Shown here: piece by piece, positions 2,719-60,299 of the stretch | How the letters are laid out: the number at the start of each line of letters is the position of its first letter | How positions within the stretch are numbered: position 1 is the first letter of the stretch | Source: an uncultured bacterium | Lineage (GTDB): Bacteria; Verrucomicrobiota; Verrucomicrobiia; Limisphaerales; UBA8199 | DNA length: 64,000 nucleotides | Direction: 5' to 3' | Assembly (NCBI GenBank): GCA_963713735.1 | Contig: CAVQND010000024.1 | Coordinates: forward strand, 77,556 to 141,555 | Translations under genes and position numbers: made by a program | Notes under the pieces: generated by a model | The model's database searches: none | Seen by the model: only the letters and a program-made list of their open reading frames with translations | What the model was told of the DNA's origin: nothing

Positions 2719-2726
2719 ATACGGAA

Positions 2727-12869: not shown

Positions 12870-13276
12870 ACGCCACGCGCCCCGAGCACCCCCGCCCGGC
12901 CAACCTGCACTTCGATTGACATGGCCCGAAGTCTATTGGCCCGTTGGCCCGCGTCAAGGCGGGATGGCACGACCAGTGACAAAGTTCTCCGCAAACCATT
13001 GTGGGAGACGACGTGAGGAGTCTCTGATTGAGTTCTGGGGCTCAACGAAAGCCTGCTCCCCTCGGAGGCCATTGATCTGAGACTCCTTACGTCGTCTCCT
13101 ACGGTCAGGCAATGGGGCAGGTTTCGGCGAGTTTGTTCCTGGCTCTGGCCCGGGCCGATTTGCGGCTTTAACATTGCATCGCCGGGCCGATTAGTGCATC
13201 TTTGCCCCTGATGTCACCACGCGGGGTTTGGCCGCCCCGCGCCGGAACGTTCATAAACAACTCAGCTCAAACAACC

Positions 13277-13963: not shown

Positions 13964-13976
13964 GTCGCTGAGAACT

Positions 13977-14708: not shown

Positions 14709-14784
14709 AACGCCGCCAGTGGCGAAAGGGGGATCGGCCGGAAAGTATGGATTATGAATTGTGGGCGGCATTTTGGCAGCCGCT

Positions 14785-14853
14785 CCTAATCGTAATCCTA
14801 ATCCTGCTCCTCATCTCCTTCGGGCAACCGATGCGGATTGAGATTGAGATTAA
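14785..14853. repeat. Hexanucleotide tract (CTAATC then GATTGA/GATTAA units) immediately left of the IS
   Basis: ctaatcgtaatcctaatcc ... gattgagattgagattaag. Confidence 0.8.
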
Positions 14854-16145: not shown

Positions 16146-16185
16146 TAAGATTAGGATTAGGATTAGGATTAAGATTAAGATCAGG
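16146..16185. repeat. GATTAG/GATTAA hexanucleotide tract immediately right of the IS
   Basis: taagattaggattaggattaggattaagattaagatcagg. Confidence 0.85.
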
Positions 16186-16226
16186 AGCCCGAAACCGCTA
16201 CCCAGGCAAGTGAAATGCCCCCGCCG

Positions 16227-17396
<1,170 letters not shown>

Positions 17397-20494: not shown

Positions 20495-24180
<3,686 letters not shown>

Positions 24181-24184
<4 letters not shown>

Positions 24185-25550
24185 GCCGGGAAAACAGGAC
24201 GATGCCCACCAGGCCGGCAGAAGCCTGACATCAGGAGGACGATTTGGCCCGAGGCCAGGCCGAGTTGGGTCCAGGTGACGCTCCGGCCGGTGCTCAGGGA
24301 ATTGACGGGAGAAAAGTCCATGGCCAAACGGATGACCTTGAGGGCAGCCCGAAAGGTCGGGATGACCACCACGTCGACCGGGGAGGAGCCTCTGGTGCCC
24401 TTTTCGGGGTTATACTCGGCGATGGTGCCTTCCTCGACGGCGCCAGCCAGGGTGCTGCTGGACAGAGTCATGACCAGCAGGCCCAGCGAGACGAAGGCGG
24501 CCACGGGGAATGAAAGCAGACTGGCCGAGGCCAGGCCCACCGCCGCCAGCAGGGCCATCCAGCACAGGATTATGCCCAGCCCCCGCGCGTAGCTGGGCCC
24601 GAAACCGCCTTCGCGGTAGAGGACCTCGACGCCGTCTTCGAGGGGGACACTCAGGGCGGTCTCGTTGGGATTGCCGAAACTGATCGTGAGCACCCCGTCC
24701 CGATCGAAGAGGTCCGGGGGAATTTGGAACTCATGGAAAGTCTCGGCGGCCATGCTCATCAAATCGCTTTGCCAGGCCGGGTTTTTGGCGGCACGCCAAC
24801 CTGAAAGACGCCACCGTAAGTGCCGCTGGCGCTTACTTCTCGGCGGCGTTGAACTTGACTCTGAGGAAAAGGGGTTGGCCGCGCAGGCGATGGCGCGCCA
24901 GGCCGAGGTTGATTCTCCAGGGGCGCGATTGGTAGCCGGGCGGGATCACCTCGTAGGCCGCCTTGACGTTTTCGCGGATTTGCCGGCGCACTTCCGCCGA
25001 GATTGGCTTTGCCGAAGTCGAGCGGATTTTTCTCGAGGCGTTCCCGGAGCACCCGATCGGTGTTGGCATCGATCTCCTTGTCGAAATTCTTTTCCCTGGC
25101 CGAGCCGCGCGCAACCAGGACTTCGTTGCGCAGGACCTGCTGCTGGTCCGGGGGCAAGCGGTGGGCGCGCCATTGCAGCAGGCCATAGACACAGCCGCCC
25201 GACAAGGCCAGGAGCACCGCATCCAGGGAGACGATGCCCAGCCATTTGCCCAACCAGATTTGCCAGCGGGCGATGGGCTTGACGGCCAGCATCTGGACCT
25301 GGCATTCCTCGATGTCGCGGGCCAGCGTCCCGCAGGCCAGCCAGAGCGTCGAGAGCCCCAGCAATGCCGTGATCGCCGTCAGCGTGTAGGTCAGCAGAAT
25401 CTGGGTGAAGCCCCGCGCCGTCCCGTCGTCCTTGATCAACAACGGCAATCCGACCACCGAGATGAGCAACAACGCGGAAACGACCAGAAAGAGGCGGAAG
25501 CGAAAGGCGGCTTTCCAGGTCAACCAGGCGATGGCATAGAGGCGTTGCAT
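24181..25550 (-). CDS. ABC-2-type transporter permease. At least two frameshifts.
   Basis: N-terminal TM helices (LFLVVSALLLISVVGLPLL). C-terminal membrane part lies in ORF 24181..24762. Sits directly downstream of the ABC ATPase gene. Confidence 0.45.
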
Positions 25551-25579
25551 CAGGGGGGAAAAGGGATGAATTATGAATT

Positions 25580-26932: not shown

Positions 26933-28954
26933 TCAGGCCCCTCTGACGGCCAACTCCGGCTGCGGGGCCGGCGGGGCGGGCCGGCTCGGTTCGGCGGGGG
27001 CGGCGGGCGCAGGCTGGTAATGCTCGAGTTCCTCGCCCTTGCGGACCAGGCGGGCGCTGTTGAACACCACGATGAGGGAGCCGCCGGTGTGCATGGCGGC
27101 GGCCACGATGGGCGGGACCTGGCCCAGGGCGGCCAGGGTCATGCCGCCGATAATAAAGGCGACGCCGAAGAGAAAGTTCTGGTTGATGACCAGGCGGGTG
27201 CTGCGGGAGAGTTTGACCAGGAAGGGGAGCCGGCGCAGGTCGTTGTTCATGAGGGCGATAGTGGCGCTGTGAATGGCCACCTCGCTGCCGGCGGCGCCCA
27301 TGGCGATGCCGATGTCACCCGCCGCCAGGGCGGGGGCATCATTGACGCCGTCGCCGACGACGGCCACCTGGAAGCCTTTGGCCTTGATGGACCGCACGAA
27401 CTCGACCTTGTTTTGCGGCAGGCACTCGCCTTTGACTTCCTCGCACCCGATTTCCTGGGCCACGCGCAGGGCCACCGGCTGGCGGTCGCCGGAGACCATC
27501 GCCACGCGGCGGACGCCGCTCCTTTTCAATTCCGCCAGCGATTCGCGGGCCTCGGCGCGGGTTTGGTCCTGCAAGCCGATCCAGCCGACGCACCGGCGGT
27601 CCAGGGCCACAAAGATGAGGCTCCATCCCTCGGTCTCGTTGAGGTCCACCGATTTCATGAAGTCTTCGCTAACCTGGTTGTCACGCAGCCATTGGGCGCG
27701 TCCGACCAGGACGGTGGAGCCGTTGACCTTGGCCTTGATGCCGCGCCCGGCGGCCTCGGAGAAATCCTTGGGGTCGTCCAGGGGCACTCCGGCCTCGGCG
27801 GCGAGTTGGGCGAGGGCCTTGGCGGTGGGGTGGTTGCTGTATTTCTCGGCTGAGGCGGCCAGGCGGAGCAGCTCGGCGGGCTTGGTCTGGCCCAGAGGGG
27901 CGAGCCGGCTCACGGCCAGTTCTCCGGTGGTCAGGGTGCCGGTCTTGTCAAAAACGAAGGCGTTGATCTTGGCGGCCGACTCGATGTCGGCGACGTTCTT
28001 GATGAGGATGCCCAGGCGGGCGGCGGCGGACAGTGCGGCGACCATGGCGGTGGGGGTGGCCAGGATGAAGGCGCAGGGGCAACTGAAGATGATGACGGAG
28101 ATGACGTTGTTGAGGTTCCGGGTGAAGGCCCAGACCAGCGCCGCAATCACCAGGACCAGCGGCGTATAGAAGCCCATGTACTGATCCACGATCTTCATCA
28201 TCGGCAGCCGCGTCTTTTCGGCGGCCAGGATCAATTCGCGGACGCGCCCCAGGGTCGTGTCGGTGCCGGCGCGCGTGACTTTGATCTCGAGCACCCCGGT
28301 GAGGTTCTGCGTCCCGGCGAAGACCTCGTCCCCCGGTTTCTTGTCGGCCGGCAGCGATTCGCCCGTAATCGTCGCCTGGTTGAAAGAGCCTTGGCCGGCC
28401 AGGATGACACCGTCGGCGGCGACATTGTCTCCGGGCCGCACGCGGATGACATCGCCGATGGCCAGGTCCTGGGCCGCCACCTCTTCCTCGCCCGTCTTGG
28501 TGATGCGGCGGGCTTTGGTGGGAGTCAGGCGAATAAGGGATTCAATCGAGGCGCGGGCCCCTTCGGCCGTGCGGGTCTCGATGATTTCACCCATGAGCAT
28601 GAAGAAGGCCACCACCCCGGCGGTCTTGTAATCGGCCGAGGCAAAGGCGGCCAGGACGGCGATGGCGACCAGTTCGTTGATGCTCAGCACGCCGCGGTAG
28701 ATGTCCTTAACGGCGGTCCAGACGATTGGGTAGCCAAGCATGATGGCGCCCAGAAAGGCGCTGACGCTGGCCACGGTCTGGCCCTTGTCAAAGGCCCAAT
28801 CCACGATGAACGCGTTCAGGACACAAACGACCCCAACCAGGGTCTGCCACAGGCGGACGGCGGCGTGGTCGTGGTCGTGATCGGGGCCGCACGACGGACA
28901 CGAGCCGTTGTGCTCGTCCTCGTGCCGGCGGCTCAGGAGAGAGGTGACTTGCAT
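26933..28954 (-). CDS. P1B-type heavy-metal-translocating ATPase. Likely substrate Zn2+/Cd2+/Pb2+.
   Basis: SCPCAFILATP (CPC motif), DKTGTLT, GDGVNDAPALA. His-rich N-terminus HEDEHNGSCPSCGPDHDHDH. Confidence 0.85.
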   Translation of the reverse strand: MQVTSLLSRRHEDEHNGSCPSCGPDHDHDHAAVRLWQTLVGVVCVLNAFIVDWAFDKGQTVASVSAFLGAIMLGYPIVWTAVKDIYRGVLSINELVAIAVLAAFASADYKTAGVVAFFMLMGEIIETRTAEGARASIESLIRLTPTKARRITKTGEEEVAAQDLAIGDVIRVRPGDNVAADGVILAGQGSFNQATITGESLPADKKPGDEVFAGTQNLTGVLEIKVTRAGTDTTLGRVRELILAAEKTRLPMMKIVDQYMGFYTPLVLVIAALVWAFTRNLNNVISVIIFSCPCAFILATPTAMVAALSAAARLGILIKNVADIESAAKINAFVFDKTGTLTTGELAVSRLAPLGQTKPAELLRLAASAEKYSNHPTAKALAQLAAEAGVPLDDPKDFSEAAGRGIKAKVNGSTVLVGRAQWLRDNQVSEDFMKSVDLNETEGWSLIFVALDRRCVGWIGLQDQTRAEARESLAELKRSGVRRVAMVSGDRQPVALRVAQEIGCEEVKGECLPQNKVEFVRSIKAKGFQVAVVGDGVNDAPALAAGDIGIAMGAAGSEVAIHSATIALMNNDLRRLPFLVKLSRSTRLVINQNFLFGVAFIIGGMTLAALGQVPPIVAAAMHTGGSLIVVFNSARLVRKGEELEHYQPAPAAPAEPSRPAPPAPQPELAVRGA

Positions 28955-28955
28955 G

Positions 28956-30056
28956 TTAAAAAAGGTACTTCATCGGCTTTCTTCCGTGGCCGCCTTTGCG
29001 GGCGGACGATTGAGCAGGAGCCGCAGTTCCTGGGGCGTTTCGGGCAGGAAGATTTTGTCCTGGACGTTGGTCATGACGCGCGCCCAGGGTTGCGGCCAGG
29101 CGCTGCTGCGCAAAGAGGCTGGGGTTCTCGCTGTACTTGGGCAGCAGGTCTTGGAATTGCTTGGCGCGGCTCGAAATGTCATCGACAAACCGGGCGCGCT
29201 CCGACTCGGCGAGCTTGATGCGGGTGGAAGCCTCGGCGCCCGCCCGGTTGGTGGTTTGAATCTCATAGCCCCGCGCCTCGGCAATGACTTTGCTGCGGCG
29301 CAGTTCGGCATCGATGACGCTTTGGAAGGCATCCTGCAATTGGCGGGGCGCCTTGCTGCGCACGTCGCAGGCCTCGACTGTCACCCCGAACTGGCGCTCT
29401 TGGACCAACTCGGTGGCGCGCCTCAGGACGGCGTCTCTGAAGCCCAGGACGTCGCGCACCAGAAGGTCATCGATCTTGTAACGGGAGGCGGCATAGAGGA
29501 GGGAATTATCCAGGGCGTTCCGGACCGCGTTCGAGGCATTGGCGAAATCGAAGATGTATTTCACGGGGTCGCTGATGTGGTAGGTCAACGTGGCCCGGAC
29601 ATGGACGATATTGGTGTCGGCGGAGATGGCGTAGCTGTCCACAACCGGGTCCATCGGCATGCCGAACGGGACCCTGGGTTCGGTGCCGGCCAGTTCCTGC
29701 TCTCGCGTGGTGGCGTACCAGCCGACGGACGATTCGACCTGCTGGAGGCCCGAGATCGAGACGATGACAGGCTCATCGATGGGGTACGGGAACGACCAAT
29801 GCAGCCCCGGCCCCAGCAGGGCCTGCTGGCCTTGGGCCACGGGCCGGCCAAAGCGCAGGATAATCGCCTGCTGCTGCGGCCCGACGGTGAAAAACCCCGA
29901 GGCCAGGAAAACGGCGACCAGGATGAGCATGACCAACTTGATGATGACGAAACTGCTGCGCAGGGCCTCGGCCAGGGCTTGGGAGCCGGCATCCACCGGC
30001 GTCTCCGGCGGCGGGGGGCCGGGCGGCGGCTTGGGGGTAAGGGGCAGGTCGTCCAT
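28956..30056 (-). CDS. SPFH/band-7 protein, HflK-like. Possible C-terminal frameshift.
   Basis: TM anchor then FTVGPQQQAIILRFGRPV...HWSFPYPIDEPVIV and a coiled-coil tail. Confidence 0.7.
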   Translation of the reverse strand: MDDLPLTPKPPPGPPPPETPVDAGSQALAEALRSSFVIIKLVMLILVAVFLASGFFTVGPQQQAIILRFGRPVAQGQQALLGPGLHWSFPYPIDEPVIVSISGLQQVESSVGWYATTREQELAGTEPRVPFGMPMDPVVDSYAISADTNIVHVRATLTYHISDPVKYIFDFANASNAVRNALDNSLLYAASRYKIDDLLVRDVLGFRDAVLRRATELVQERQFGVTVEACDVRSKAPRQLQDAFQSVIDAELRRSKVIAEARGYEIQTTNRAGAEASTRIKLAESERARFVDDISSRAKQFQDLLPKYSENPSLFAQQRLAATLGARHDQRPGQNLPARNAPGTAAPAQSSARKGGHGRKPMKYLF

Positions 30057-30106
30057 AACTATTGCGCGAACTCCGGCGGTGAGGGGTGATGCATGGCGCG
30101 ACCGGG

Positions 30107-31043
30107 CTATTGCTTCACGCGGTTGGTGGACACGCCGTTCAGGAGATTGCTCGACACGCCGTGCAGGAGGCCAAAGGGGGGCGTGTTTGCGTCGAAGATC
30201 AGCGTCGAGTGGTCCTTGAGCGATTCTTTGAGGGCGTCCAGTTGGATGATGAATTTGGCCAACTCCGGGTCCTGTTTGAAGACGGCCAACGACTCGGCCG
30301 CCTGGGCTTCGCCCAAGGCGCGGATTTGTGTGGCCTTGCTATCGGCGTCGGAGAGCATCACGGCGGCCTTGCTGTCGGCTTGCGAGCGGATCTTGGTGGC
30401 TTCGGATTCCCCTTCGGATTGGGAGGTATCGGACAGGACCTTGCGCTCGGCCTGCATCCGGTCGAACACCGTCTTGCTGACGTTCTCGGGCAGTTGCAGC
30501 CTCTTGATGCCCAGGAACCTGATATCCAGGCCCCAACTGTTGGTCGAGATCTGCGCTTGGATGGTCTTGCGCATTTCATCTTCGATGGCCAGCAGGCCGG
30601 CCCCGTTCTCGCTCGTGGAGACGAAATCGGACAGGGCATGTTTGCCGACAATGGCTTTTTCGACATTGCCGACCCGCTCCTCGAGTTTGCGCTCGGCCTC
30701 GGCAATGGCATTGAGACTGCCGGCAAACTTCGGGAAGAAAGCGGCGGGGTCGGTAATCTGCCATCCCACATAGACCGAGGTGAGCAGGTTGAAGCTGTCC
30801 TTGGTCAGGCCCTCGGTAAGCCGATCCTCGAAATTCTGGATGCGTTGGTCGAACTTATACACCTTCTGGATGGGCCAGGGCCACTTATAGTGGCGGCCGG
30901 GCTCGGTGATGGGCCGGGTCGGTTTGCCGAACGTCGTGACCATGGCCGACCTCCGATTGGCGGACCTGAAACACAAAGAGCAGCAGGCCGAAGATCAACA
31001 GCAGCAGCAAGCCGATCGACAGGGTGAAGAGGTTGCGTTTCAT
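30107..31043 (-). CDS. SPFH/band-7 protein, HflC-like. N-terminal frameshift at about 30945.
   Basis: VVTTFGKPTRPITEPGRHYKWPWPIQKVYKFDQRIQ. An N-terminal TM helix is encoded upstream in another frame. Confidence 0.7.
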
Positions 31044-31049
31044 GGAAGA

Positions 31050-32957
31050 TTACTTGTTCGGTTTGTTCGTCGAGACGTTCAGGTTTTCCAGGAGTTCGGG
31101 CCGAATACGGTCCTGGAGGTCGAAGATGAGGACGTTATGGGTATTGGTGGTGAGCATAATGTACTTGCGCGCGTTGGCGGTGGCGCGGGTGAAAGTCCGC
31201 AGATAGGCCCGCTCCGCATAAACCGAGGGGGCCGCCTGGAAAGCAGGGATCTGGTTGGTGAACAGGGCCGCGTCGGCCAGGGCCCGCGCTTGGTTGGCTT
31301 CACGCTCCGCGCCGGCCTTGTTGAGAATCGTGGCGACCTGGGCGCCCGCCAGGTTGTTGGTCCGAATCTCGTCGGCCCGGGCCTCCAGAATCTTCGCCAG
31401 CTTGGTTTGGGTGGCGGCGACGACCCCCTCATAATCCTTGGCCACTTTGACCGGAGGATGCAGATCCTGCAAGGCGACGGCCAGGATGCGGACGCCCAGT
31501 TGGCGCTCATCGGCGGCAGCCTGGATGCGGTTGGCCAGCGTTTCCGAGGCCTCGAGCCGCCCGCTGGACATCAGTTCGTTCATGTCGGCGCTGGCAAAAT
31601 AGCGGACAACCTCTCGAGTCGCCACGTCATGCAGCAGGGAGGGGGCATCTTCGTTGGTGTACGACCAGACCATCAGGTTGGTGATCTGGTACTCCACCGG
31701 GATGCTACCGGTGATGAAGCTCACCGGGGGCGTCCGTTTGCCGGCAGGTTCGTTGGTGGCCCCGAGCATGCCCCCATCCCGGTTGGCCACCAGGAAGTCC
31801 TCTTCCTTGGCGCCGGGGCGCGTGTGGGCCTTGGTCCAGAGCACGACCGGCTCGTTTTCCTTCGAGGAATCCCCCGTTACTCCGACTTCAAGGGTCTGGA
31901 TCTGCTCGGTGCGCGAGCGATAGACCCGGTCGATGGGCCAGGGCAATTTCAAATGAGCCCCCGCCTTGAGCACGGTGCGGCCCTCGACGGGCCTGCCGAA
32001 GCGCTCCAGCAGGCCCTCCTCGCCGGCGTCGATGAACACCAGGCACGTCGAGAGCAACAACACGCTCCCTTGGAGCAGCAGCAGCCACTTGAGCGCCCGC
32101 TCGAAAAACAGCCGATAAAACCAGGTTTCGGAAACCTTGAAGCCGAATTGGTAATCCACCGCCTGGGCGGCTGTGGTGACCAGGCCCTCCGGCTGGGCCA
32201 GCAGGCCCACGAGCCGGCTCTCATACAAAGGCCGCTCGACCTTGCCCTTGACCCGGGGCCGATAGATCTCGAGCACCAGCGCGATGAGGGTTTCGACCGC
32301 CACCAGCCCCAGCAGGACGCACAGCGCGTGCGCCAGCACGAAGTCCGCCTTGGGGAATTGCCATCTCGCGGCGATGATGCCGGCCGCCACCAGCCCGCAG
32401 ATGAAGGCGTTGAGCAGGACATAACTGGCGCTGGGCCGGAGCAGGCGGTTGTTCTCCAGCCGCGCGTAGGTGGCCGAAAACCGGCCCAGCAGGAAGAGCA
32501 CCAGCGCGAACACGCCGAAGAGCCCCAGGGCGATTGTCGGTTCCTTCAAGTCGCCGACCGTCGTGGGTTTGCCCAGCCAGCGCCAGAAGAAATAAGCCCC
32601 TCCGCCTTGCAGCAGGCACAACAGGACGGTGAATGCCGGGACAAAGACCCGCTCGAACTGCTCGCGCGAACGCTGCGCCGGAAAGACCTCGGCGTCCTTG
32701 GCCTCGAACAGAGCCGAGCCGGCGTGCGTTCTGGCCAGATCCTCCAATTCCAGCTTCTCCAGCCGCTCGTTCTCCTCCAGGCGCATCTGAAACCAGCTTA
32801 CGGCCGCCACCAGCAGGCCCATGCCCAGGAACAGCGTGCCGACCTGGCCGGCCAGCGAATTGCTGTTCCGGGCCACGGCGAAGCCCGCAACCCCAACCAC
32901 CAGCAGTGCCAGCAGATTGATCAGACCGATTTTCTGTGTGCTTCGTTCCATAGTCAA
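31050..32957 (-). CDS. Polytopic membrane protein fused to a C-terminal SPFH domain
   Basis: About 8 predicted TM helices in the first ~300 aa. Then LKLPWPIDRVYRSRTEQIQTLEV and an HflK-like C-terminal region. Confidence 0.6.
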   Translation of the reverse strand: MTMERSTQKIGLINLLALLVVGVAGFAVARNSNSLAGQVGTLFLGMGLLVAAVSWFQMRLEENERLEKLELEDLARTHAGSALFEAKDAEVFPAQRSREQFERVFVPAFTVLLCLLQGGGAYFFWRWLGKPTTVGDLKEPTIALGLFGVFALVLFLLGRFSATYARLENNRLLRPSASYVLLNAFICGLVAAGIIAARWQFPKADFVLAHALCVLLGLVAVETLIALVLEIYRPRVKGKVERPLYESRLVGLLAQPEGLVTTAAQAVDYQFGFKVSETWFYRLFFERALKWLLLLQGSVLLLSTCLVFIDAGEEGLLERFGRPVEGRTVLKAGAHLKLPWPIDRVYRSRTEQIQTLEVGVTGDSSKENEPVVLWTKAHTRPGAKEEDFLVANRDGGMLGATNEPAGKRTPPVSFITGSIPVEYQITNLMVWSYTNEDAPSLLHDVATREVVRYFASADMNELMSSGRLEASETLANRIQAAADERQLGVRILAVALQDLHPPVKVAKDYEGVVAATQTKLAKILEARADEIRTNNLAGAQVATILNKAGAEREANQARALADAALFTNQIPAFQAAPSVYAERAYLRTFTRATANARKYIMLTTNTHNVLIFDLQDRIRPELLENLNVSTNKPNK

Positions 32958-34096
32958 CTCAGCTCCCGCTCTTCAAATAACATGACCGCCAGCGCCAGGG
33001 CCGCCCCCACATACGCCACGGCATAAGCAAAGGCCTTGCCCACATAGCCCCAGTGGTACGTGCTCTTGCCGCTGTCCAGGGCGTCGGCCAGCCAGAAAAG
33101 CTGCCAATTCGGCGTGAGGGTGTAAAGCACGGCGGCCCACCGCAACCCGCCCATTCCAGCCTGCGCCAGGCGTGCCCGGTCCTCGGCGCTCAAGCTGGGC
33201 TGCGCCCCGGCCTCCGGCTTGCCCTCGGGGGCCTTGGCATATTTCCGGATCAGCCCTTGGAGCAGCGCCTTTTGGCTGTCCGACCACCGGGAACTGGTCA
33301 CTTCCTCCTTGAGGTCATAACGCCAGACCGGGTCGGCTCGCCGGCCGAACAGGTAATCGGACATGATGCCCAGCAGAAACAACGCCGAGCAAACCGCCAG
33401 CGTGGGGATCATATCCAGCCGAGTCGAGCAGGCCAGGGCCAGCCCCGCCAGAATCCAGACCGCGAACAGGATGAGGATCGCCGCCGGGACCAGTTGCCAA
33501 TCCACCCCGGTGCCAAAGGCCTGGGGCTTGCCCTCTTTGGTGTAGTAGCTGATCACCACAAAAGCCACGCTCACCATCGCCACCAGGCAGAAGGCAGCGT
33601 CTGAAACAAACGGGCGGCGCAGGAAAAAATTGCTGAATCCTCCCATCAGATAGGCCACCACCAGGGCAAGGGCAAAAATGCCCAGGGCAAACAGATCCGT
33701 CGAGCCGTAGGCGTCGAAAGCCATGCGGCTGGCCAGCAGCGCCGCCACCAGGTTGACGTAGGTCAGCAGCGCCAGCGCGACGACCAGCCCGGCGTACTTG
33801 GCCAGCAGAAACTGAGAGCGGCCGACCGGTTTGGAGAGCACCGCCAGGGCCGTGCCGGCCCGAATTTCACGCGCCAGCGAGGCCGAAGCGCTCAGGACCG
33901 CCCCCAGCAACCCCGCCAGCAGCATGACTGCCAGCGTGCTGTTCTTGACCAGCTTGGGCTCGTCCCCAGACGCAAAGTAATACGGCGTCGCCAGAAAGAT
34001 CTCGAATGCGGCGGAACTGGTCATCAGCAGCAGGAATACCGGCTGCCTCACCAGCTCCATAAACGCATTGGTCGCGATGGTGATGAACTGTCTCAT
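32954..34096 (-). CDS. ABC-2-type permease-like polytopic membrane protein. First gene of the operon.
   Basis: Hydrophobic profile with at least 6 TM segments. Overlaps the next gene by 4 nt. Confidence 0.45.
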   Translation of the reverse strand: MRQFITIATNAFMELVRQPVFLLLMTSSAAFEIFLATPYYFASGDEPKLVKNSTLAVMLLAGLLGAVLSASASLAREIRAGTALAVLSKPVGRSQFLLAKYAGLVVALALLTYVNLVAALLASRMAFDAYGSTDLFALGIFALALVVAYLMGGFSNFFLRRPFVSDAAFCLVAMVSVAFVVISYYTKEGKPQAFGTGVDWQLVPAAILILFAVWILAGLALACSTRLDMIPTLAVCSALFLLGIMSDYLFGRRADPVWRYDLKEEVTSSRWSDSQKALLQGLIRKYAKAPEGKPEAGAQPSLSAEDRARLAQAGMGGLRWAAVLYTLTPNWQLFWLADALDSGKSTYHWGYVGKAFAYAVAYVGAALALAVMLFEERELS

Positions 34097-34195
34097 CGTC
34101 TAGTCCGTCAAGCCTGACAGGATACGGATTGCCGAAGTAAATGCAATCCGATAATTAATCTAGCGCATTATGCCCAACCCCGCCCGGGCCGGAAC

Positions 34196-34240: not shown

Positions 34241-34482
34241 GCGCTTGTGCTAACGCGAATACTTGGCAGCCCGCCGTAGCGTGAGCGGCTTGTTGAGGAT
34301 TGGCTGGGTGAGGCCGAACGCTTTGAAATTGCCGAGACGCGACTGTGCGAGCATACCCCGCCGGCCAAATCCTGCAGTACCGATTTCGAAGGGTTCGTAC
34401 CGCAGGCGCTGTCGATTGGCCGGGTCGAAGTCACTGCGGATCTCGTCAGCATCCTTGCGGCTCAGCCGAGTCCAGGTGGTCT

Positions 34483-35304
34483 TCAGGGATACTTCGCAGG
34501 ATCTGTGCAGATGTCGAATCCGTGTGGAATGCTCAGCCCAATCAGGTTAGAAATGAAGTAGCGGTCGTGAAAATCCTCCCAGATAAAGACTCTGGCGCCC
34601 AGGTTATTTGCGCGCAGCAGTCCGCCGAGGCCGGCAAAACGGTCAATCCAGTCGTTGCGGGTTGGGTACTGCTCCTGGGTGGTCTGGCCCGCCGAGTCCT
34701 TGCAGGAGCGGTGTATCTCGATGAGGTCGGGTTTACCCTCGGTATGAAGGGAGGCTGTGAGAATCTGATGGAAATCTGCGTAGCTCGGTTTTTGTGGATC
34801 GATATTCGGGTCAATAAGCATTACGCTGTTTGAATGCCGCAGCACGGGTCTCAAGTGGAGAACGTAGTCGTTTATCTGCCGGTCGAGTCGGAGGGAGCAA
34901 CTCCGGGACTTCCACCAAGGGGCAGCATGAAGCCGACTGATGGAGACGACGAAGGCGTCTGCCTCCTGCTCTGCCAGGTCCGGCATGGCCAGGGCGGCTT
35001 GGAGCCTGCGGTCATGGAGTCCCAGTTCCTCCGACCTCCTGGCTTCCCAAAGCCACTCGTCGGGGGTGGAGGGCTGGCCCAGCGGGGTCGGGGCGATCTC
35101 TCGGAGGCGGGCTGCATTTACAAGGGCTTCAAACAACTGCCGCCCTGCAGGCGTGCAGCGTGCAATGTTGCTGAGTACCTGACTGCCGCCACCCACCTCG
35201 CCGCAGGTCGCGCACCACCCCATCGTTGAGCAGGAGATCGGCCAACTGTGCCATGCAGGCATCGTGTGCATCGCCCGTGCAACCGTTCGCGGGTTCGAAT
35301 ACAT
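34483..35304 (-). CDS. Uncharacterised partner protein of the ABC-type ATPase. Candidate effector of a two-gene defence module.
   Basis: Starts 25 bp downstream of the ATPase stop on the same strand. Local GC is lower. No recognised motifs. Confidence 0.35.
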   Translation of the reverse strand: MYSNPRTVARAMHTMPAWHSWPISCSTMGWCATCGEVGGGSQVLSNIARCTPAGRQLFEALVNAARLREIAPTPLGQPSTPDEWLWEARRSEELGLHDRRLQAALAMPDLAEQEADAFVVSISRLHAAPWWKSRSCSLRLDRQINDYVLHLRPVLRHSNSVMLIDPNIDPQKPSYADFHQILTASLHTEGKPDLIEIHRSCKDSAGQTTQEQYPTRNDWIDRFAGLGGLLRANNLGARVFIWEDFHDRYFISNLIGLSIPHGFDICTDPAKYP

Positions 35305-35328
35305 CGGGCATTAATGCAAATTCGGAGA

Positions 35329-37126
35329 TCACGAAATGTATTCCCGCAACCCTTCCTCAAAGAACCCGCCCGGCCAGGCCTTCACCAACTCGCCGCGCTG
35401 GTTCACGGGCATTTCGCGCACGAGGCTCCCATGGCCTGTGGGCTCGACATACAGCACGGCCACATCTTCCGGGTGAACCTGCGGCAGGCCCTTGGGGAGC
35501 CGACCGTTCTGGGTTTCCCGTACGCGGCGCATAAGCCTGAGAATCAAGTGCTCGCTGTGCGTCTCAAGCAGGAACGTGTTTTTTCTCTCGCCAAGGGCGG
35601 ACTCGATGAAAACGTCTCCCAGTTCGGCCTGAAGCGACGGATGAAGATGGAGTTCGGGCTGCTCGACAGCAATCAACCTTTCGCGGGAGGCCAGGGCTGT
35701 GACCAGGACAGGCAAAACTTGGCTGAGACCGAAGCCAATGTCCCTATGGCTGACAACGGTCCCGGACCTCGCCTCCTGAAATAAGAGCCTCTGTCAGCGT
35801 GGCTAACTCCGGGTGGTTCCGCAATGCCTCTTCTGCTGCTTGGTGCAGCGGACCGCCGTACGCGCCAGGCTGCTCTTTCAGAGCCTCGAGCCATTTCTCG
35901 GCCTCTACCATCTGCTTGGCAATGATTCGGTAATTCGTCCCCAGCCGTGCCGGCCCCAGCCATTCATTGAGAACCTCGACGACCGCCGGATCCTGCCGGG
36001 CCAGCTCCCAGGCGGCGCCGCCGCTCGCCAGCCAGTTGGGATCCTGATCCCGAACCCGAGGTGACATGGCGAGACGGAACGCAACGCAAGGGACCGAGGT
36101 AGGAGAGCTGTCGCAAAGCGGCCAGAATCTGCCTGACGCGGCCCGACAGGAGGCGGTTCAGGTCATACCGAATGGCTTGCGCCTCATCCCACCAGTCGGT
36201 ATCTTCCCGACATTCCTCACGTAGGAATCTGACCGGGTCAGACTCCATCTCGTCCTCCCATGCAGTCCAATCAGACCACGGATTCGCTGCGGTGTCTTCC
36301 AGCACAAGCCCATCAAGGCGGTATGCCCCCTCCTTCAGGACCGTGTCAAACCGTTGCCTCAAACGCGATAGTTCGCTTCTTGCCGACTCTGGATCGGACC
36401 TCGCCAGCGCCAGGCGGGATAGGAACGGATCGGCCTCGATCTTTTCTTGATGCCTGCGCTCCACCGATAGCTTCTGTTCGGCCGAGAGCTCACCGTCATT
36501 GTAAAGGGTTTCCTTAATGAAATTCGGTTGCAGCATGTCCTGCATCGAGTGGGCCATGACGTCACGGGTGATGACCTCGAGAAAGGGATGATCGAGATCC
36601 ACGGTTCTCACCTGAAAGACGCCGGCTTCCTTGCGCTCCAAGTCCAGAAGCCTGCGGCCGTTGACCAGCACTTCCAGGTGCAGGGCGCTGGCCCTCCCAC
36701 TCCGCCCGCCCCGCCCGGGCTGGCGGGCAGCCCTATCTGAAAGATCACACCAACGCGCTTTGCCGCTCGAAACGCCGCGCGCCAGGGGGCACTGTCGTTT
36801 GGTCTGTCCCATAACGTTCGTTCCGGGGCAGGCCTCTCGATGTATAAGGACACTCTGCGGTTGACTTCATGCCGGTGGACGTACTGCCGGAACCCCCCGA
36901 GATCAACGCACTCGCCGCCAAGGGCGGTCTGGTGCGCATCCAGCCTGCCGCTCTCGAGGCCGTGGTGAGCAAGCAACAGTGCGTGAATGATGCTCGATTT
37001 CCCTGAACTATTCGCGCCGAAGATCAGCGTAAGCGGCTTGATTGGCACCCGCTGTGTTTCACCGAACGCCTTGAAGTTGCCAATGCCCAATTCCGTAATC
37101 ACGCTGGCAGTATTGCTCGACCTCAT
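35329..37126 (-). CDS. ABC-type AAA ATPase (AAA_15/AAA_21, DUF3696-like), as found in PARIS/Septu/Gabija-type antiphage modules. Three frameshifts.
   Basis: Walker A LTLIFGANSSGKSSIIHALL. YLGPLRCVPSRH. C-terminal LIAVEQPELHLHPSLQAELGDVF...LLETHSEHLILRL. Split over ORFs 36608..37159, 35964..36812, 35744..36067 and 35329..35715. Confidence 0.6.
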
Positions 37127-37171
37127 TTTTTCTTCTAGCCTAAACTTCATAAACCCCATAACTCTTTAGTC

Positions 37172-38080
37172 ATGTTTGTGGAATTGCTCAGCCAGGGCGG
37201 CCTCTCTCTCGACCGCCTGCAGAGCTTTTGCCTCGTCGCCCAGGCCGGCGGAGTCACCAAGGCCGCTAAGGGCGACCCCGCCCGGCAAAGCCTCTTTAGC
37301 CGGCAGATCAAAGAGCTGGAAGGGTTCTTCGGGACCGAACTCATCCGGCGCAAGGGACGCGGCATCGTCCTCACCGATGCAGGTTCGCGCCTGAACGTCA
37401 TCGCCCGCGAGTGCTTTGCCTCATTCCTGGATTTCAAAAGCCAGTGCGAAAACCAGCCCGTGGAAGTGGTCATTGGCGCCGGGGAGAGCGTCATCCAGTG
37501 GCTCCTGTTGCCGCGCCTGGACCAAATCCGCGAACGCATGCCAAACGTCCGGCTCAAATTCCTGAACTTGCCCACCGGGGAAGCAGTGAAGCGCCTCACC
37601 GATGGCTTGATCGATTTCGCCCTGGTCCGCAAAGACGCGGTCACCCGCCCACTTCAGGCGAAAGCCCTTGGCGTGATGGGCTATTCCCTGTTCCTCCCGG
37701 CGCGTCTCCGCGCCGCCCACGGTCAAAAGGAAGGACTGAAGCTCCTCGCCGGCCTGCCACTGGCTACGCTCGAAGGGGAGGGCAGTTTCCGCAGTGTGCT
37801 CTCCGCCGTCGCCAGGAAGCAACGCGTGCAGGTGAACATCCAGGTTGAGTGCTCCTCCTTCCCCCTTGCAGCCCGCGCCGTGGCCGGAGGGAAGGTCGCA
37901 GCCATCCTTCCGAGCATCGCCGCCGCCGACCTGGAGGCCGCAGGGGTCGAGCAAGTTGCCGTCCCGTCTCTGAGGGCCTTCGACCGCGAAATGTCCCTCG
38001 CCACCAGCCCCCGCCTAATTCGTATCCGCCCGGTCCTCGAGAAAGTCGGCGCGGTGCTGCATCAGGTTTGCACCTTTTAG
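37172..38080 (+). CDS. LysR-family transcriptional regulator
   Basis: N-terminal HTH LSLDRLQSFCLVAQAGGVTKAA. LysR substrate-binding fold, about 300 aa. Confidence 0.8.
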   Translation: MFVELLSQGGLSLDRLQSFCLVAQAGGVTKAAKGDPARQSLFSRQIKELEGFFGTELIRRKGRGIVLTDAGSRLNVIARECFASFLDFKSQCENQPVEVVIGAGESVIQWLLLPRLDQIRERMPNVRLKFLNLPTGEAVKRLTDGLIDFALVRKDAVTRPLQAKALGVMGYSLFLPARLRAAHGQKEGLKLLAGLPLATLEGEGSFRSVLSAVARKQRVQVNIQVECSSFPLAARAVAGGKVAAILPSIAAADLEAAGVEQVAVPSLRAFDREMSLATSPRLIRIRPVLEKVGAVLHQVCTF

Positions 38081-39602
38081 ACCAACTCCAACTGGCGGTT
38101 GCGTTCGGGTTCGGGCTTTGCGAACTTCAGGAACCTTTTGATGCGGCCCGGTTGCGCCCAGTTGCATGTGCCTTCGACATTGAGTGATTTAAGGTACCGC
38201 TCAATGTGCGAAGAGCATAGTTGTTTGAGAAGGGACTCGGCTTCCTGGGCCGTAGAGCATGGGATGAACGAGTGCATCGCTTGATTCGGCTGCCAGGGTT
38301 TGCCTTCGACTGCCGAGAAAACCTGCGGAGCGAAGGTGTGCTTGCCGTAGGCTTCCCATACGACTTTATGCGGCGCGAAACTGTATCTGCCCACACCTAA
38401 GCACGCCCACCAGATGCCTCGCTTTATCCATGCGCCGAGCAGGCTGCCTTTCCGATTCTCCAGTGCCTGCCTGTGCAGATGAAGGTAAGAGCGCAAGGTG
38501 GGGTGCTGGTTCAGTTCTGCTTCGGTGAGGGGATTCCCTGTTTCGGGTGTTGTAGGGAAGCAGAATAAACCGCTGGGGCTTGGAAGCAGCGTTTCGGAAG
38601 CATTCCTTTGTCAGAAGCGGGAAGACAAACTGCCTTGGCAGGTGGTCCGGGTATTGGTCGAAAATAAAGGCATGGTTCGCCCCGCATGTGTTGACGCCCT
38701 GCCTGGGCTTCTGGTCGGCCCTGACGGTAATCGGAGCCGCTGCTCTAATATCGTCGAGATCGGCACGTTCGCCGGAGACTGACAGTGGAGCAGTGGCTTC
38801 GCCAATTGGGGCGGCGTACTGGCTTGCCCAGGATTCCCCTGTGAGGCTTTTGTATGGTATGGGGAATGCGTTCTGTTTGTCCCGATGGAATAAGGCGGCC
38901 CCAATCTCGAGTGAGGATGTCCGGAAAGATTTTCTGTAGGCGGAAATCCCAGATTTGACAGACCCGAAACTCGGAATTGCGGAGCCGGTATTTGCGGAAG
39001 CCGGCGTGCGCCCCGTCGTTGAAAAATAGAGAAAGCGGCAGGAAGAAGGCCGCCTCACTATTCCGCTCCAGGTTTTCGTTGAGGACCACGGCAATCACGA
39101 GCGCCGCCAGGTCAACTCTGGAACTGCCCAGAAGCACGGCCTGCATGTCCGCGACCAAACCGTAGTCCAAAAAGTGTGGCTTGGTTGCCTCCTTGTAGCC
39201 GGGTGGAAGATCGTTGAAGTTAACCCATGGCGGGTTCCCTATCAGAAAGTCGAATCTGCGCTTGGGGTTCGACAGTATTATATCGGCATGGATTAGGTTG
39301 CGTTTTGGGAAGTCCCTCCGGTACTTCAGGCGGAAACCAGCCTCGAACTCCCGGAGGAACTTTGGTTGCTGCTCCATTAAGTGTAGCCGAGACAGCATCT
39401 CGTCATCAACTTCAATGCCAATGGTCATGGCGGTGTCAACCAAGGCGTAGGCAAATGCTCCATTGCCGGCAGTGGGGTCGCATACCGTCGCGCCCTCAGC
39501 CCACCGGCGAACGACGTTGGCTTCGCCGACCAGCCATTTCGCCCAGCGGAGCGGCGTAAAAACGGCCCCGATTGGTTTAGCCGCCAAAGGTGAATCTTGC
39601 AT
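38077..39602 (-). CDS. N6-adenine DNA methyltransferase (gamma-class, TaqI-like) of a type II R-M system. Frameshifted.
   Basis: Motif I VCDPTAGNGAF precedes motif IV DFLIGNPPWV. The C-terminal target-recognition part lies in other frames (ORFs 38366..39094 and 38077..38496). Confidence 0.7.
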
Positions 39603-40245
39603 AGCCGCCGCGCTTAAAATTCTCGATTGCTTGAAGTCGCTTCTGCGCGTCTCTGCCGACCCGTTGGTAGTGTTTTATGGCGAGGTCGGTGAAGATGTCG
39701 TAAAAGGTCTTGATGCCACGATCCCACTCAATCTCGTCCCATACCTGGTTGATAGTATAGTTCAGGCGGACCTGGCCGGTGCCGAGATTCTCGATGCGAT
39801 AACTGTTCTCCGGAAGGAGGATGAACGGAGCAACACGGATGTACTCCAGGTCTCTTGCGTCCGTCTTTGTTGACGACTGGTTGTGACCGAACTCTGCGAT
39901 GATGAACTGCCCTTTGTCGTTCGCCAAAAACTTGAGCAGGTTGCCAACTGCGCAGATTCCGCCGTCAGAATACTTTGTCGTGTCGAGATCTTTCGTTTTG
40001 ACATCGATTCCAACGATGCGGTTCTCAATCGTAAAGCCGAAGTCGAAAATAGTGCGGCGACCGGGGAGGTTGACGGGCGCGAACCCGCAACGTTCACAGA
40101 TGGCGTGCCAGTTGTCCAATATTCTGCGCTCGATCATGGCTCCGAACGCACGGGAGTCTTCCCTGGCCGCCATCCCGGAGCGCAGCTCTTCAAAGAGGCT
40201 GACAAGTTCCTTCTCGATGGCTCCTGATATTTCTCGCAAATTCAT
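39577..40245 (-). CDS. Putative type II restriction endonuclease (PD-(D/E)xK-like), overlapping the methyltransferase start
   Basis: Position immediately upstream of and overlapping the MTase gene. FDFGFTIENRIVGIDVKTK is a plausible D...E.K core. Lower GC. Confidence 0.45.
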   Translation of the reverse strand: MNLREISGAIEKELVSLFEELRSGMAAREDSRAFGAMIERRILDNWHAICERCGFAPVNLPGRRTIFDFGFTIENRIVGIDVKTKDLDTTKYSDGGICAVGNLLKFLANDKGQFIIAEFGHNQSSTKTDARDLEYIRVAPFILLPENSYRIENLGTGQVRLNYTINQVWDEIEWDRGIKTFYDIFTDLAIKHYQRVGRDAQKRLQAIENFKRGGYARFTFGG

Positions 40246-42425: not shown

Positions 42426-42478
42426 GGTTGCCCTTTGAGGACATTGCCTGAAGGCGGTTTCTCTCGTAATAATGAAGG

Positions 42479-43848
42479 ATGAGAATGAAAGACGGCCTGA
42501 AATGCCATGTTGAGCGCGCCCTGGAGGCGACGGGGGAAACCCGTTGCCTGGAACTGGGTTGCGGCGTGCTGGCGAAGACGCCGGAGGTTTTCACCGGCCA
42601 GTTCGGTGATAAACCGCCGCTGGTCGTCGCGGACGAAACGACCTTCGCGGTCGCAGGGCGGGCGGTCCTGGAGGCCTTTCGCCAGGCCAGGCGCGCCGTG
42701 GAAGAACCCTACATATACAGGGATCCGCAACTTTATGCCGAGAACCGGTTCGTGGCGGCCCTCGAGGAGGTCTTGCGCGCGCGGCCCGAGGCCATTCCCG
42801 TGGCAGTCGGGTCGGGGACAATCAACGATTTGACGAAGCTGGCGGCCCATCGCGCGGGCCGCCGCTACATCGCCGTGGGGACGGCGGCCTCGATGGACGG
42901 CTACACCGCCTACGGGGCCTCGATCACTTACAACGGCTCGAAACAGACCTTCCCCTGCCCTGCCCCAATCGCGGTGGTGGCCGACCTGGAGGTCATCAGG
43001 GCGGCCCCGGCCGAGCTGAACGCGGCCGGCTATGCCGACCTGATGGCCAAGACCGTGGCAGGGGCCGACTGGCTGCTGGCCGATGCGGTGGGAACCGACC
43101 CCATCAACGCGGGAGCCTGGGACATCATCCAGGGCCGCTTGCGCGAGGTGCTGGCAAATCCGGCCGGGGTGCGCGCGGGCGACCTCGACACCCTCGAGCG
43201 GGTTGGCGCAGGGGTTGATGCTGGGCGGCTTTGCCATGGTCTGGGCCAGATCCAGCCGTGTCGCTTCCGGCGCCGAACACCTCTTCAGCCATATCTGGGA
43301 CATGGAGCACCACACGCACAACGGCAAAATTCCGTGGCACGGCTTTAAGGTGGGCATCGGCACGCTGGCCGTCACCGCGCTCTATGAGTGCCTGCTGTCC
43401 TTGCCGCTGGCCGAACTGGACCTGGACCAATGCTGCGCCCAGTGGCCCGACCAGGCCGCCCGCGAAAAGCAGATCCTCGAACTGTTCGCCGGAAGATGAT
43501 GCCCGGAACGTTGCCCTTGTCGAAAGCGGGGCCAAGGCCGTGGACCGGGCTGAACTGCGCCAGCAACTGGAGAAGTTGCGGAGGGCCTGGCCGCGCTTGA
43601 GCCAACGGCTGCGCGAGCAGTTGATTCCCTTCGACGAGCTGAAAGCAATGCTCCAGGCCGCCGGCGCGCCCGTCGAACCCGAAGACATCGGCATCTCGCG
43701 CCAACGCCTGCGACGCACGTATTGGCAGGCCCTCTTCCTGCGCCGCCGGTTCACGGCCTTGGACCTGGCCGCGCGCACCGGCACCCTCGACACCGCCCTG
43801 GATAAGCTCTTTGCGCCGGGAGGACGATGGGCAGCAGGCAAAGGATGA
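42479..43848 (+). CDS. Glycerol-1-phosphate dehydrogenase-like (AraM/EgsA) protein of the iron-ADH/DHQS superfamily. Two frameshifts.
   Basis: VGSGTINDLTK, AASMDGYTA, HLFSHIWDMEHHTHNGKIPWHGFKVGIG. Pieces lie in ORFs 42479..43348, 43083..43499 and 43231..43848. Confidence 0.6.
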
Positions 43849-43890: not shown

Positions 43891-45175
43891 TCATACTTCA
43901 TTCCCGCGGCTCTCACGCAGGGCCTTGAAGAGGGCCTCGAGGTTTTCCACGGGCGTGTTGCCCTGGAGGTTGTGCACCGAGTTGAAGACGAAGCCGCCCC
44001 CGGCATTGAAAAGCGAAATCCGCTCCCGCACTTCGCGATAGACCTGGTCGGGCGTGCCGAAGGCCATCGTTTTCTGCGTGTCCACGCCGCCGCCCCAGAA
44101 GACGAGGTCTTTGCCGAATTGACGTTTGAGGCCGGCGGCCTCCATCTGGGCGGCGGAGCATTGGACAGGATTGAGGATGTCGAAGCCGGCGTCGATGAAG
44201 TCGGGGATGAGCTGGTAAACCGAGCCGCAGGAATGAATGAAGGTCTTCCATCGGGAGCGGCGATGGATGAGGTCGGTGACCTGCTTGTGAAAGGGCTTGA
44301 ACAGGTCGCGATAGGCCTGCGCGGAGATAAACGGTCCGCGTTGCGTGCCGAAATCAGTGCCGGTAATCCAGGCCGCCTGGACGAGGTCCCCGAAAGAGGT
44401 CGATGAGCGTCTGGATATTCTGCAGGGCCAGGGCGCATTGGCGCTCGAATATGGAATAGACGTAATCCCGGCGGGTCTTGGTGGAAATGTACCACTCGGT
44501 GATGTCGCGGATGCCCTTGGGGTGCTTGAGCCATGGGGCGGGCACCTGGGCGATGTCGCCGAAGCCCGCGCCGGGGATGGTCAGGATGCAGCCGCAATGA
44601 GCGCGCTCCTGCACCCATTGCTTCTTCTCGCGGTAATAGGCCAGGTCGGCTTCGCCCAGCAAGCCAAATTCCTCGGTGTTGTCCTCGGGATTCAACCTGG
44701 CCTCATCAATGGGGTCCTGCTCGACAATGGTATCACAGAAATAGCCGCCCGCGGGCATGTGGCCCCTGGGGGGCGCGCTGGTGTCCCCTTCGGGGTAAAT
44801 GAACCAGCCGCCGTCCGGGGCGCGGGTGACATTGAAATTGCCCGGCACCAGGCAGCGGGTGCCGTCAAAGAGCGTAAAGGGCTTCCAGTCCTTGGATTCG
44901 GTGCCGAACATCGACCTTCGCGGCGCCACTCCGAGGACGTCGAGGCCCAAGGCTTCGCGGAGGGCGTCATCAATCTCGCCCAGCATCTGGTAAGGCTCGA
45001 TGACCCGCACCAGGCAGTCCGGTTGGCCCAGCACCAGGCGGCGCAGGCGCGTGACGGCTGAAACATGAATGCCGGTCACGGCCGTGCCGCCGAAGTCGGC
45101 CGCGACGCAGTCCGGTTGCTGGTGGTCGAGGGCGGCCTGCACTCGTTTGCGGGGGGTCCAATGTGAGGTGCTCAT
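43891..45175 (-). CDS. Uroporphyrinogen-decarboxylase (URO-D)-family protein. Frameshifted.
   Basis: URO-D/MtaA-like N-terminal region in ORF 44354..45175. C-terminal FGKDLVFWGGGVDTQ...GGGFVFNSVHN lies in ORF 43891..44145. Confidence 0.6.
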
Positions 45176-45261
45176 GGTTGCCTGTGTTACAGCCTGCGCC
45201 CAATTCAGTCAATTCAGGAATCGGCTTGTTGGGTGGGTGAAAGGAGGATAAGCTTTCAACG

Positions 45262-46632: not shown

Positions 46633-46893
46633 ACTGGAGGTTCTCCGCACGAACGCGAAGACCCGACAAGTTCTCCGGCTGGCGGCGCAGGGGCCAGCGG
46701 TAGCTGTCGCCGGTGAAATCCCACCGTTCGCTTTAAAAACCGGCTGTCATTTTTCCTTGAAATCTCGGCCCATCAGAGTAAAAACGTACCATCTGCCACC
46801 ACGAGCCGCTGACTCGCTTGGGTTCAGCCAACGACCCGCGTGCGGAAGACCGGTTGGGACTGACCCGACCGGCAACAACTAAACCTTGGCCAT

Positions 46894-60236: not shown

Positions 60237-60299
60237 CGGATGAGGTTACGCAGAAGAGCAAATTGGCGCAAAAAGAATTCGCTTGAGTAACCAGGCGGC

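Follow-up and report, generated by a model that had tools for sequence, protein, structure and literature searches.

A gene pair for an NsnB-like ATPase and an NsnC-like partner

Our subject is a 64,000-nucleotide stretch of DNA, hereafter the window, from an uncultured Verrucomicrobiota bacterium of the UBA8199 lineage (GenBank assembly GCA_963713735.1, contig CAVQND010000024.1, positions 77,556 to 141,555). Within it, on the minus strand at ~34376-37159, lies a module of two genes: an ATPase resembling NsnB, followed by a partner resembling NsnC. Menshen, an anti-phage system, is defined as NsnA-NsnB-NsnC (Millman et al. 2022), and has since been analysed by Li et al. 2025 (PMC12065111). The ATPase gene (35329-37159, minus strand) encodes an ABC ATPase with a DUF3696 tail, ~608 amino acids long after correcting three single-base indels. 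As assembled, three-frame translation finds the frame broken into four pieces over three frames. The start codon is the ATG at 37159, with an alternative ATG at 37126, and the stop codon is at 35329-35331. The partner gene (34376-35332, minus strand) encodes ~312 amino acids when corrected, of which residues ~1-135 are PIN-like and residues ~136-312 are PLD/HKD-like. Its GTG start, at 35332, forms a four-base overlap (GTGA) with the ATPase stop. Hence, the two genes are translationally coupled.

A preliminary description of this DNA had delimited the pair as 34483-37126, and had placed an open reading frame of 273 codons (34483-35304) 25 base pairs downstream of the ATPase. That reading frame is a frameshift artefact, corresponding to the middle of a longer gene, and homologues are ~312 amino acids in length. 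Since the partner starts at GTG 35332, and its stop at ~34376 has been lost, the pair reaches beyond the earlier bounds. The lower GC content reported for the locus holds, though modestly, with local values of 0.57-0.63 in the module and 0.63-0.66 in the flanks. At third codon positions, GC content is 0.70-0.73 in the module (34300-37160) and 0.82-0.87 in flanking genes (27000-34100). This much weaker bias is consistent with a horizontal origin.

The ATPase has the motif variants of NsnB

Once repaired, the ATPase matches Pfam families AAA_15 (1.9e-17) and AAA_21 (9.3e-14). The best PADLOC matches are NsnB of Menshen (1e-43), PDC-M55A (5e-42) and the HEC-03 ATPase (5.5e-35). As first thought, the protein thus belongs to the defence class of ABC ATPases. 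We aligned the window copy with 54 partner-linked ATPases (n=55). The Walker A motif, GANSSGKS (36995-37018, minus strand, as are all motifs below), is kept throughout. In YLGPLR (36084-36101), arginine replaces the Q-loop glutamine, a hallmark of NsnB, and in DIGFGLSQ (35719-35742), GxG replaces the SGG of the ABC signature, a further NsnB feature (both described in PMC12065111). The alignment also shows that an E-Q dyad replaces D-E in the Walker B region, IAVEQPELHLHP (35638-35673), and identifies the H-loop, LETHSEH (35548-35568). YLGPLR, DIGFGLSQ and VEQPE are all conserved. Motifs and Pfam together therefore bear out, on the minus strand, the Walker A and LETHSEH H-loop regions of the preliminary description. 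We conclude that the ATPase is of the NsnB type, with an ABC fold, arginine for the Q-loop glutamine, GxG for SGG and no D-E dyad in Walker B.

The C-terminal DUF3696 tail (35329-35513, minus strand) carries WPGGFFEE and is matched by Pfam at residues 546-586. Note that this match (3.5e-4, 21.2 bits) is slightly below the 22-bit cut-off. The tail is the predicted docking site for the partner N-terminal domain. Residues ~100-340 are almost without conservation among the 55 sequences and form a hypervariable insert region. An intact relative, P0032, shares 80% identity with the window ATPase, and the corrected sequence is collinear with it. The AlphaFold2 model of P0032 (pLDDT 87.6) resembles SMC and Rad50 heads, the retron Eco8 OLD protein, GajA, PtuA and AriA. 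Sequence searches of the PDB returned no solved relative of either the ATPase or the partner.

The partner combines PIN-like and PLD-like domains

The window partner has no match in Pfam or NCBIfam, and no direct match in PADLOC. In agreement with the initial reading that HNH and Toprim motifs are missing, Pfam, PADLOC and further domain and fold comparisons found no Toprim, DUF4435, HNH or helicase domain. A candidate assignment to DUF6098 (E-value 0.036) fell short of the cut-off and was rejected. The fold was instead assessed using the AlphaFold2 model of an orthologue, P0001 (pLDDT 92.8). In this model, the N-terminal domain appears to be a catalytically inactive PIN-like domain, and the C-terminal domain is predicted to adopt a PLD/HKD-superfamily fold. 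The N-terminal domain is without the conserved D-E-D-D acidic set. Only W41, R68 and W86 are invariant, E89 is nearly so, and several homologues have N in place of D35.

The C-terminal domain has an HKD-like motif, FHDRYFISNLIG (34537-34572, minus strand), of the form HxR-x4-N, that includes the predicted catalytic histidine. Residues H248, D249 and R250 are invariant among homologues, with N or D at +7. Hence, the canonical HxK(x)4D is replaced by an HxR-x4-N/D variant. Other invariant residues are E198, H200 and R201, in IEIHRS (34705-34722, minus strand), and D167, an acidic residue following a beta strand, in LIDPNIDP (34795-34818, minus strand). The closest fold is MIT_C. Some partner-family members weakly match the PADLOC NsnC model, in its C-terminal half (profile ~121-231 of 242); others weakly match the BrxL C-terminus (profile positions 549-662 of 698), via partner residues ~151-269. 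An HDR motif has been described for the PB-PLD1 class, and a 2026 BREX survey (PMC12839542) regards the BrxL version as an endoDNase of the HKD type in which R has replaced K. The partner had been proposed as a new effector type. Rather, structure prediction for the orthologue points to the two-domain plan of NsnC, PIN-like plus PLD-like.

The gene pair is widespread and found in defence islands

Searching 1.84 billion cluster representatives with a partner profile gave 1,941 matches at E<=1e-3 and 938 at E<=1e-10, nearly all ~310 amino acids long. We examined 77 genome loci, from many phyla, of which 69 have full-length partner genes; these loci are referred to by numbers with the prefix L. 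The phyla include Acidobacteriota, Planctomycetota, Verrucomicrobiota, Binatia, Latescibacterota, Cyanobacteria, Myxococcota and Proteobacteria. In 67 of the 69 full-length loci, an NsnB-like ATPase ends at the partner start codon; the two exceptions are contig edges. Furthermore, every metagenomic context inspected shows the same pairing. Conservation of a co-oriented gene pair, as suggested initially, is therefore upheld. The possibility that the partner is non-coding, raised at the same time, does not fit with 1,941 cluster representatives, a ratio of nonsynonymous to synonymous substitution rates (dN/dS) of 0.20 and the pLDDT of 92.8.

Neighbourhoods are variable and island-like, with no conserved housekeeping synteny. 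We annotated 62 upstream and 62 downstream neighbours. Upstream, HsdS (15) and HsdM (8) together account for 23 of 62 genes, sigma-54 activators for 12, and other families for the remainder. Dense defence islands surround the pair in L002 and L005, with genes for type I restriction-modification (R-M), TIR plus short pAgo, GmrSD-like, SIR2 and HEPN proteins, and a further PDC-M55A-like module. The defence-island setting first proposed for the pair is thus supported. The L002 locus (1-16966), from the closest partner clade, encodes type I R-M, TIR_2 with short pAgo (pAgo_I 3e-166) and the ATPase-partner pair. Also present are two GmrSD-like proteins (HEC-06/Orf5 type), a 306-amino acid gene product, a PDC-M55A-like ATPase (1e-48) and a 332-amino acid gene product.

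A second DUF3696 ATPase is found directly 3' of the partner in nine loci. Such tandem modules occur in L015 (7940-10420), L016, L024, L028, L037, L051 (7985-10968), L053 and L069. In L051, a distant partner-like gene comes after the second ATPase.

The 12 upstream sigma-54 activators combine Sigma54_activat and HTH_8 domains, and some are RtcR-like. The carriers are likely to include metagenome-assembled genomes of Vicinamibacterales (L015 3639-5162, L024 3603-5126, L028 3708-5231, L058 3654-5177 and L061 3560-5083), where the upstream reading frames are on the same strand as the pair and tightly coupled to it.

In the window, a LysR-family regulator (37172-38080, plus strand; Pfam HTH_1 and LysR_substrate) is divergent from the ATPase and abuts its start. 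Orthologues, with identity from 90% down to 37%, are upstream of the pair in L009-L011, L083, L007, L049, L042 and L066, and the opposite flank is unconserved across these loci. In L042, ~2 kb and another gene separate LysR from the ATPase. The regulator may be linked to the module in a Verrucomicrobiota-like clade. Both a LysR gene and an R-M system had been reported beside the pair. The former adjoins the module. Of the latter, a methyltransferase fragment is evident at 38748-39602, but a 222-amino acid reading frame upstream of it, the candidate restriction enzyme, is without any Pfam match. The methyltransferase block is of the Eco57I type (N6-adenine), at 38077-40245 on the minus strand, and its coding sequence appears to be divided among three or more frames (38745-39602, 38366-39094 and 38077-38496). 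It is not present in the syntenic L009 and L010 loci, so appears to be a strain-specific insertion beyond LysR.

NsnA is not detected beside the pair

The defining third gene of Menshen, NsnA, encodes ParB-DUF262 and ParBDB domains and is located upstream of NsnB. In the window, the opposite-strand LysR gene is directly upstream of the ATPase, where NsnA would stand in Menshen. No GmrSD_N/DUF262 family is listed among the 62 upstream and 62 downstream neighbours. Similarly, phmmer searches with two DUF262 proteins gave no match in the 77 loci or the window. Scanning the same DNA for the DGxQR motif found isolated matches only, judged to result from chance; one, in L035, is probably of this kind. 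A downstream DUF262 gene in L002 and L003 was considered as a displaced NsnA and rejected because it matches the GmrSD-like HEC-06, Orf5 and SspE models. For the L002 DUF262 proteins, the NsnA model is not among the 25 PADLOC families listed. With NsnA undetected in the tested loci, the pair is therefore best described as an NsnA-less, two-gene relative of Menshen.

The DUF3696 tail and partner are exchanged together

The window is syntenic with loci L009, L010/L011 and L001, all having in order LysR, the ATPase, the partner, a 380-amino acid membrane protein and three Band_7 genes. At this one chromosomal site, L009 and L010 have a different partner allele, with ~23% identity and 302 amino acids, in which HPRF replaces HDRY. 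Conversely, L001 and L002 share the partner type of the window. Homology between window and L009 DNA ends at 35513, ~60 codons ahead of the ATPase stop, and resumes at 34240. For the ATPase body, identity to L009 is 78-92%, depending on the segment; for the DUF3696 tail it is 47%, as it is for L010. The pattern is reversed in comparisons with L001 and L002, where identity is 18-43% for N-terminal and insert regions and 67-76% for the tail. Hence, the tail matches loci with the same partner type, the body matches L009, and we conclude that the DUF3696 tail travels with the effector. DUF3696 tails are predicted to clamp the NsnC inPIN domain (PMC12065111), and co-swapping of tail and effector is the outcome expected from that published prediction.

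Relics flanking the partner genes mark earlier exchanges. In the window, reading through the lost stop (34250-34375, minus strand) reveals a relic of ~30 amino acids, MLAQSRLGNFKAFGLTQPILNKPLTL, like the N-terminus of another ABC ATPase. This ATPase N-terminus (RLGNFKAFG..KPLTL), directly after the partner, is also in L001 (~2790-2870), and suggests a former tandem module or recombination scar. The L010 partner (9911-10819) and the L009 partner (9818-10750) are each followed by a C-terminal fragment (10979-11155 and 10983-11162, respectively). These are leftovers of the type-1 partner C-terminus, with 40% identity to P0001 residues 250-312.

Frameshifts in the module and the wider assembly

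Indels in the ATPase were called against the intact, 80%-identical L009 orthologue. There are three, all on the minus strand: a -1 indel at 36685, an additional G at 36057 (GGG, where L009 has GG; the same site is indicated by L009 and L010) and another additional G at 35789. The frameshifted ATPase of the preliminary description is therefore confirmed, but such breaks are not limited to this gene. In the partner, alignment to L001, an 89%-identical orthologue, places a +1 G at 35178, in the N-terminal domain. A -1 indel at 34487, in the C-terminal region, makes the false stop at 34483 (both minus strand).

Elsewhere in the window, two Band_7 (HflK/C-like) genes on the minus strand have +1 indels relative to L009, at 30948 and 29080. 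The 30948 insertion parts a transmembrane-anchored N-terminus (MKRNLF...QVRQSEV) from the remainder (AMVTTFGKP...). The ligA gene, encoding NAD-dependent DNA ligase (20495-22637, plus strand), is split near ~21315, inside the adenylation domain, so that profile positions 2-188 are in one frame and 185-253, along with the OB, Zn, HhH and BRCT domains, are in another. We sought further candidates as overlapping coding-like open frames, applying Pfam to selected pairs. About a dozen other same-strand, coding-like frames overlap by 100-400 nucleotides; candidate spans are 3659-5546, 22634-25577, 42476-43499, 43891-45208, 46864-47933, 57889-60245, 60291-61296 and 62566-64000. The split in ligA in particular leads us to conclude that indel errors are present in the assembly. 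Exact matching of the ATPase/partner junction against metagenome contigs found no independent assembly of the same strain.

Interpretation of the locus

We consider it probable that the locus encodes a relative of Menshen with two genes and no NsnA, consisting of an NsnB-type ATPase and an NsnC-type effector with PIN-like and PLD-like domains. The analysis shows homology, folds, gene coupling, the absence of NsnA, the defence-island context, the hypervariable insert and the co-swapping of tail and effector. From analogy, we infer defence itself, along with complex formation, the trigger and the substrate. The mechanism we propose draws on the Menshen model and the solved Septu, PARIS and Gabija complexes. 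Briefly, ATPase dimers or tetramers would hold the effector, with the DUF3696 tails gripping the PIN-like domain. As there is no ParB-DUF262 sensor, the variable insert region of the ATPase would sense the phage cue. This cue would change the ATP state; upon ATP binding or hydrolysis, the PLD-like nuclease would be set free or switched on, and would then cut nucleic acid and stop infection.

Several points weigh against this interpretation. The partner matches the PADLOC NsnC model only weakly, in four of 28 family members (best 2e-5), and matches neither the HEC-03 PIN model nor PDC-M55B. Published work treats phosphodiesterase activity of the HxR variant as no more than a hypothesis and MIT_C, the closest fold, is without shown catalysis; nuclease activity is therefore an assumption. 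The case for contact between ATPase and partner draws on a prediction made for other Menshen systems (PMC12065111), and the defence role of this family is suggested by homology, context and precedent. Finally, the window copy, as assembled, yields neither full-length protein.

Alternatively, the ATPase could be part of a PARIS, Septu, Gabija or OLD system, as the preliminary description supposed, or a housekeeping protein of the RecF, SbcC or SMC type. The generic AAA_15 and AAA_21 matches, PADLOC matches to AriA (1.9e-19) and GajA (~1e-10), and the likeness of the fold to SMC and Rad50 heads are compatible with such identities. However, the AriA and GajA scores are far weaker than those for NsnB, PDC-M55A and HEC-03, which are the nearest named relatives in profile searches; Old also scores far lower, and the GajA and PtuA matches are weak and partial. 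The partner has none of the corresponding effector or helicase domains, and the ATPase is without a coiled-coil insert. Moreover, NCBIfam housekeeping models score far under their cut-offs (RecF 20 bits, cut-off 172; SMC 25 bits, cut-off 729; Rad50 likewise) and the variable, island-like context is unlike housekeeping synteny. We regard this whole group of identities as extremely improbable. It is also very unlikely that the locus is a canonical, three-gene Menshen system from which NsnA has been lost solely in this genome. While such a loss would account for NsnB as the best ATPase match, and for the NsnC architecture of the partner, NsnA/DUF262 was not found beside the partner family in any of the neighbours or loci described above. 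In addition, syntenic L009-L011 likewise carry LysR directly upstream of the ATPase, and the DUF262 proteins beside L002 have other affinities.

Accepting that the pair is a two-gene relative of Menshen, the state of the window copy has two competing explanations. There is roughly an even chance that the organism has an intact module, and that the five frameshifts and lost stop are indel errors, such as those of an under-polished long-read metagenome-assembled genome. The split in ligA, which is normally essential, the two conserved Band_7 genes with +1 indels and the dozen or so further overlapping frames all favour this. So do the marks of selection: dN/dS is 0.20 for both ATPase and partner, in the range of intact neighbours (0.10-0.20), and points to purifying selection on both genes. 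All 15 of 15 invariant partner residues and every ATPase motif are preserved, and the module has no nonsense mutations or large deletions. Yet, frame-breaking indels are about six-fold denser in the module (five in 2.8 kb) than in the syntenic flank (two in 7.2 kb), with a binomial estimate of p ~0.02. The LysR gene, the 380-amino acid gene and the 635-amino acid gene are indel-free, and the adjoining methyltransferase appears split too; this pattern is like selective decay of defence genes. The two genes could instead be true pseudogenes, inactivated recently as a defence system that is costly or autotoxic was lost at a variable hotspot; we hold this to be a substantial possibility, but one on the lower side of even. 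The L009 partner also looks frameshifted, relics of older modules surround the locus, and pseudogenised Menshen components have been noted (PMC12065111). Against decay are the indels in ligA, the lack of relaxed selection and invariant sites free of stop codons, deletions or missense changes. The excess of indels in the module thus reflects either recent decay or a locally poor consensus at a strain-variable hotspot.

For the family as a whole, ~1,000-2,000 clusters, we tentatively propose an extended model that we judge to be slightly short of an even prospect. Here, the pair would be an autonomous two-gene defence system without a ParB-DUF262 sensor. The insert would sense phage, the DUF3696 tail and effector would be exchanged as one cassette at fixed hotspots, and expression in the Verrucomicrobiota-like clade would perhaps be controlled by the dedicated, divergent LysR protein. 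If the two-gene form is autonomous, NsnA is dispensable for sensing and response by the NsnB-NsnC core of Menshen; of all steps in that system, the role of NsnA is the one understood least. The mosaics, with a constant ATPase body and swapped tail and effector, provide independent comparative support for the predicted docking of tail and inPIN. These natural swaps, and the size of the NsnA-less family, are the useful points to emerge. For annotation, Menshen detection rules that demand NsnA miss a sizeable family. Note also that, because the assembly carries indels even in ligA, pseudogene calls in the window call for caution and read-level support.

Comparison with known systems

The C-terminal domain of the partner has relatives outside defence ATPase systems. 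The HKD-like C-terminus of BrxL and the MIT_C domain of MITD1 belong to the same PLD-fold subfamily, with the K-to-R variant of HKD. However, BrxL is an MCM-like AAA+ helicase in BREX, and MITD1 is a eukaryotic ESCRT-III-binding protein. With PARIS, Septu and Gabija, the module shares a general arrangement in which a nuclease, either bound or fused, is under the control of an oligomeric ABC ATPase of the OLD/SMC class. The effectors of those systems are Toprim/DUF4435, HNH, or fused Toprim with helicase. The partner has no AriB-type DUF4435/Toprim domain, as would indicate PARIS, and no HNH (PtuB), fused Toprim or GajB helicase was found, as would indicate Septu, Gabija or OLD. Furthermore, their ATPases are without a DUF3696 tail, and the matches to their profiles are much weaker.

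PADLOC includes PDC-M55 as a candidate system of several genes, from a set recognised by its embedding within loci for BREX, DISARM or type I R-M. The window ATPase matches PDC-M55A, as noted above, and neither the window partner nor its homologues match any PDC-M55 component model. HEC-03 consists of two genes, for an ABC ATPase and a PIN protein, that protect E. coli, with both required (Payne et al. 2024, preprint, 10.1101/2024.01.29.577857). The likeness extends to the two-gene plan, an ABC ATPase with a PIN-fold partner, and to the position of HEC-03 inside modification-based defence loci. Its ATPase profile also matches the window ATPase, more weakly than NsnB and PDC-M55A. Unlike the partner described here, that of HEC-03 is a VapC-like PIN protein taken as the effector, and its PADLOC profile matches neither the window partner nor any of 28 homologues. 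In our module, the acidic residues for catalysis are missing from the PIN-like domain, to which a PLD/HKD-like domain is fused.

Menshen protects against T4, and its activity has been shown only for the three-gene systems of S. silvestris and E. coli. Differences from Menshen are that the pair is without NsnA, standing alone or after type I R-M genes, and that similarity between the partner and the PADLOC NsnC model is marginal. The resemblances are broader. Thus, the ATPase is of the NsnB type, including the DUF3696 tail, R for Q, GxG and the altered Walker B, and the gene directly 3' has the NsnC plan, an inactive PIN-like N-terminal domain with a variable effector C-terminal domain. The effector of the pair, which has the HDR motif, falls in the PB-PLD1/MIT_C-like class, and polymorphism and shuffling of effectors at the locus are common to both. 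We conclude that the locus is a broken or mis-assembled copy of a widespread module, a variant of the Menshen, HEC-03 and PDC-M55 kind rather than a new effector type.

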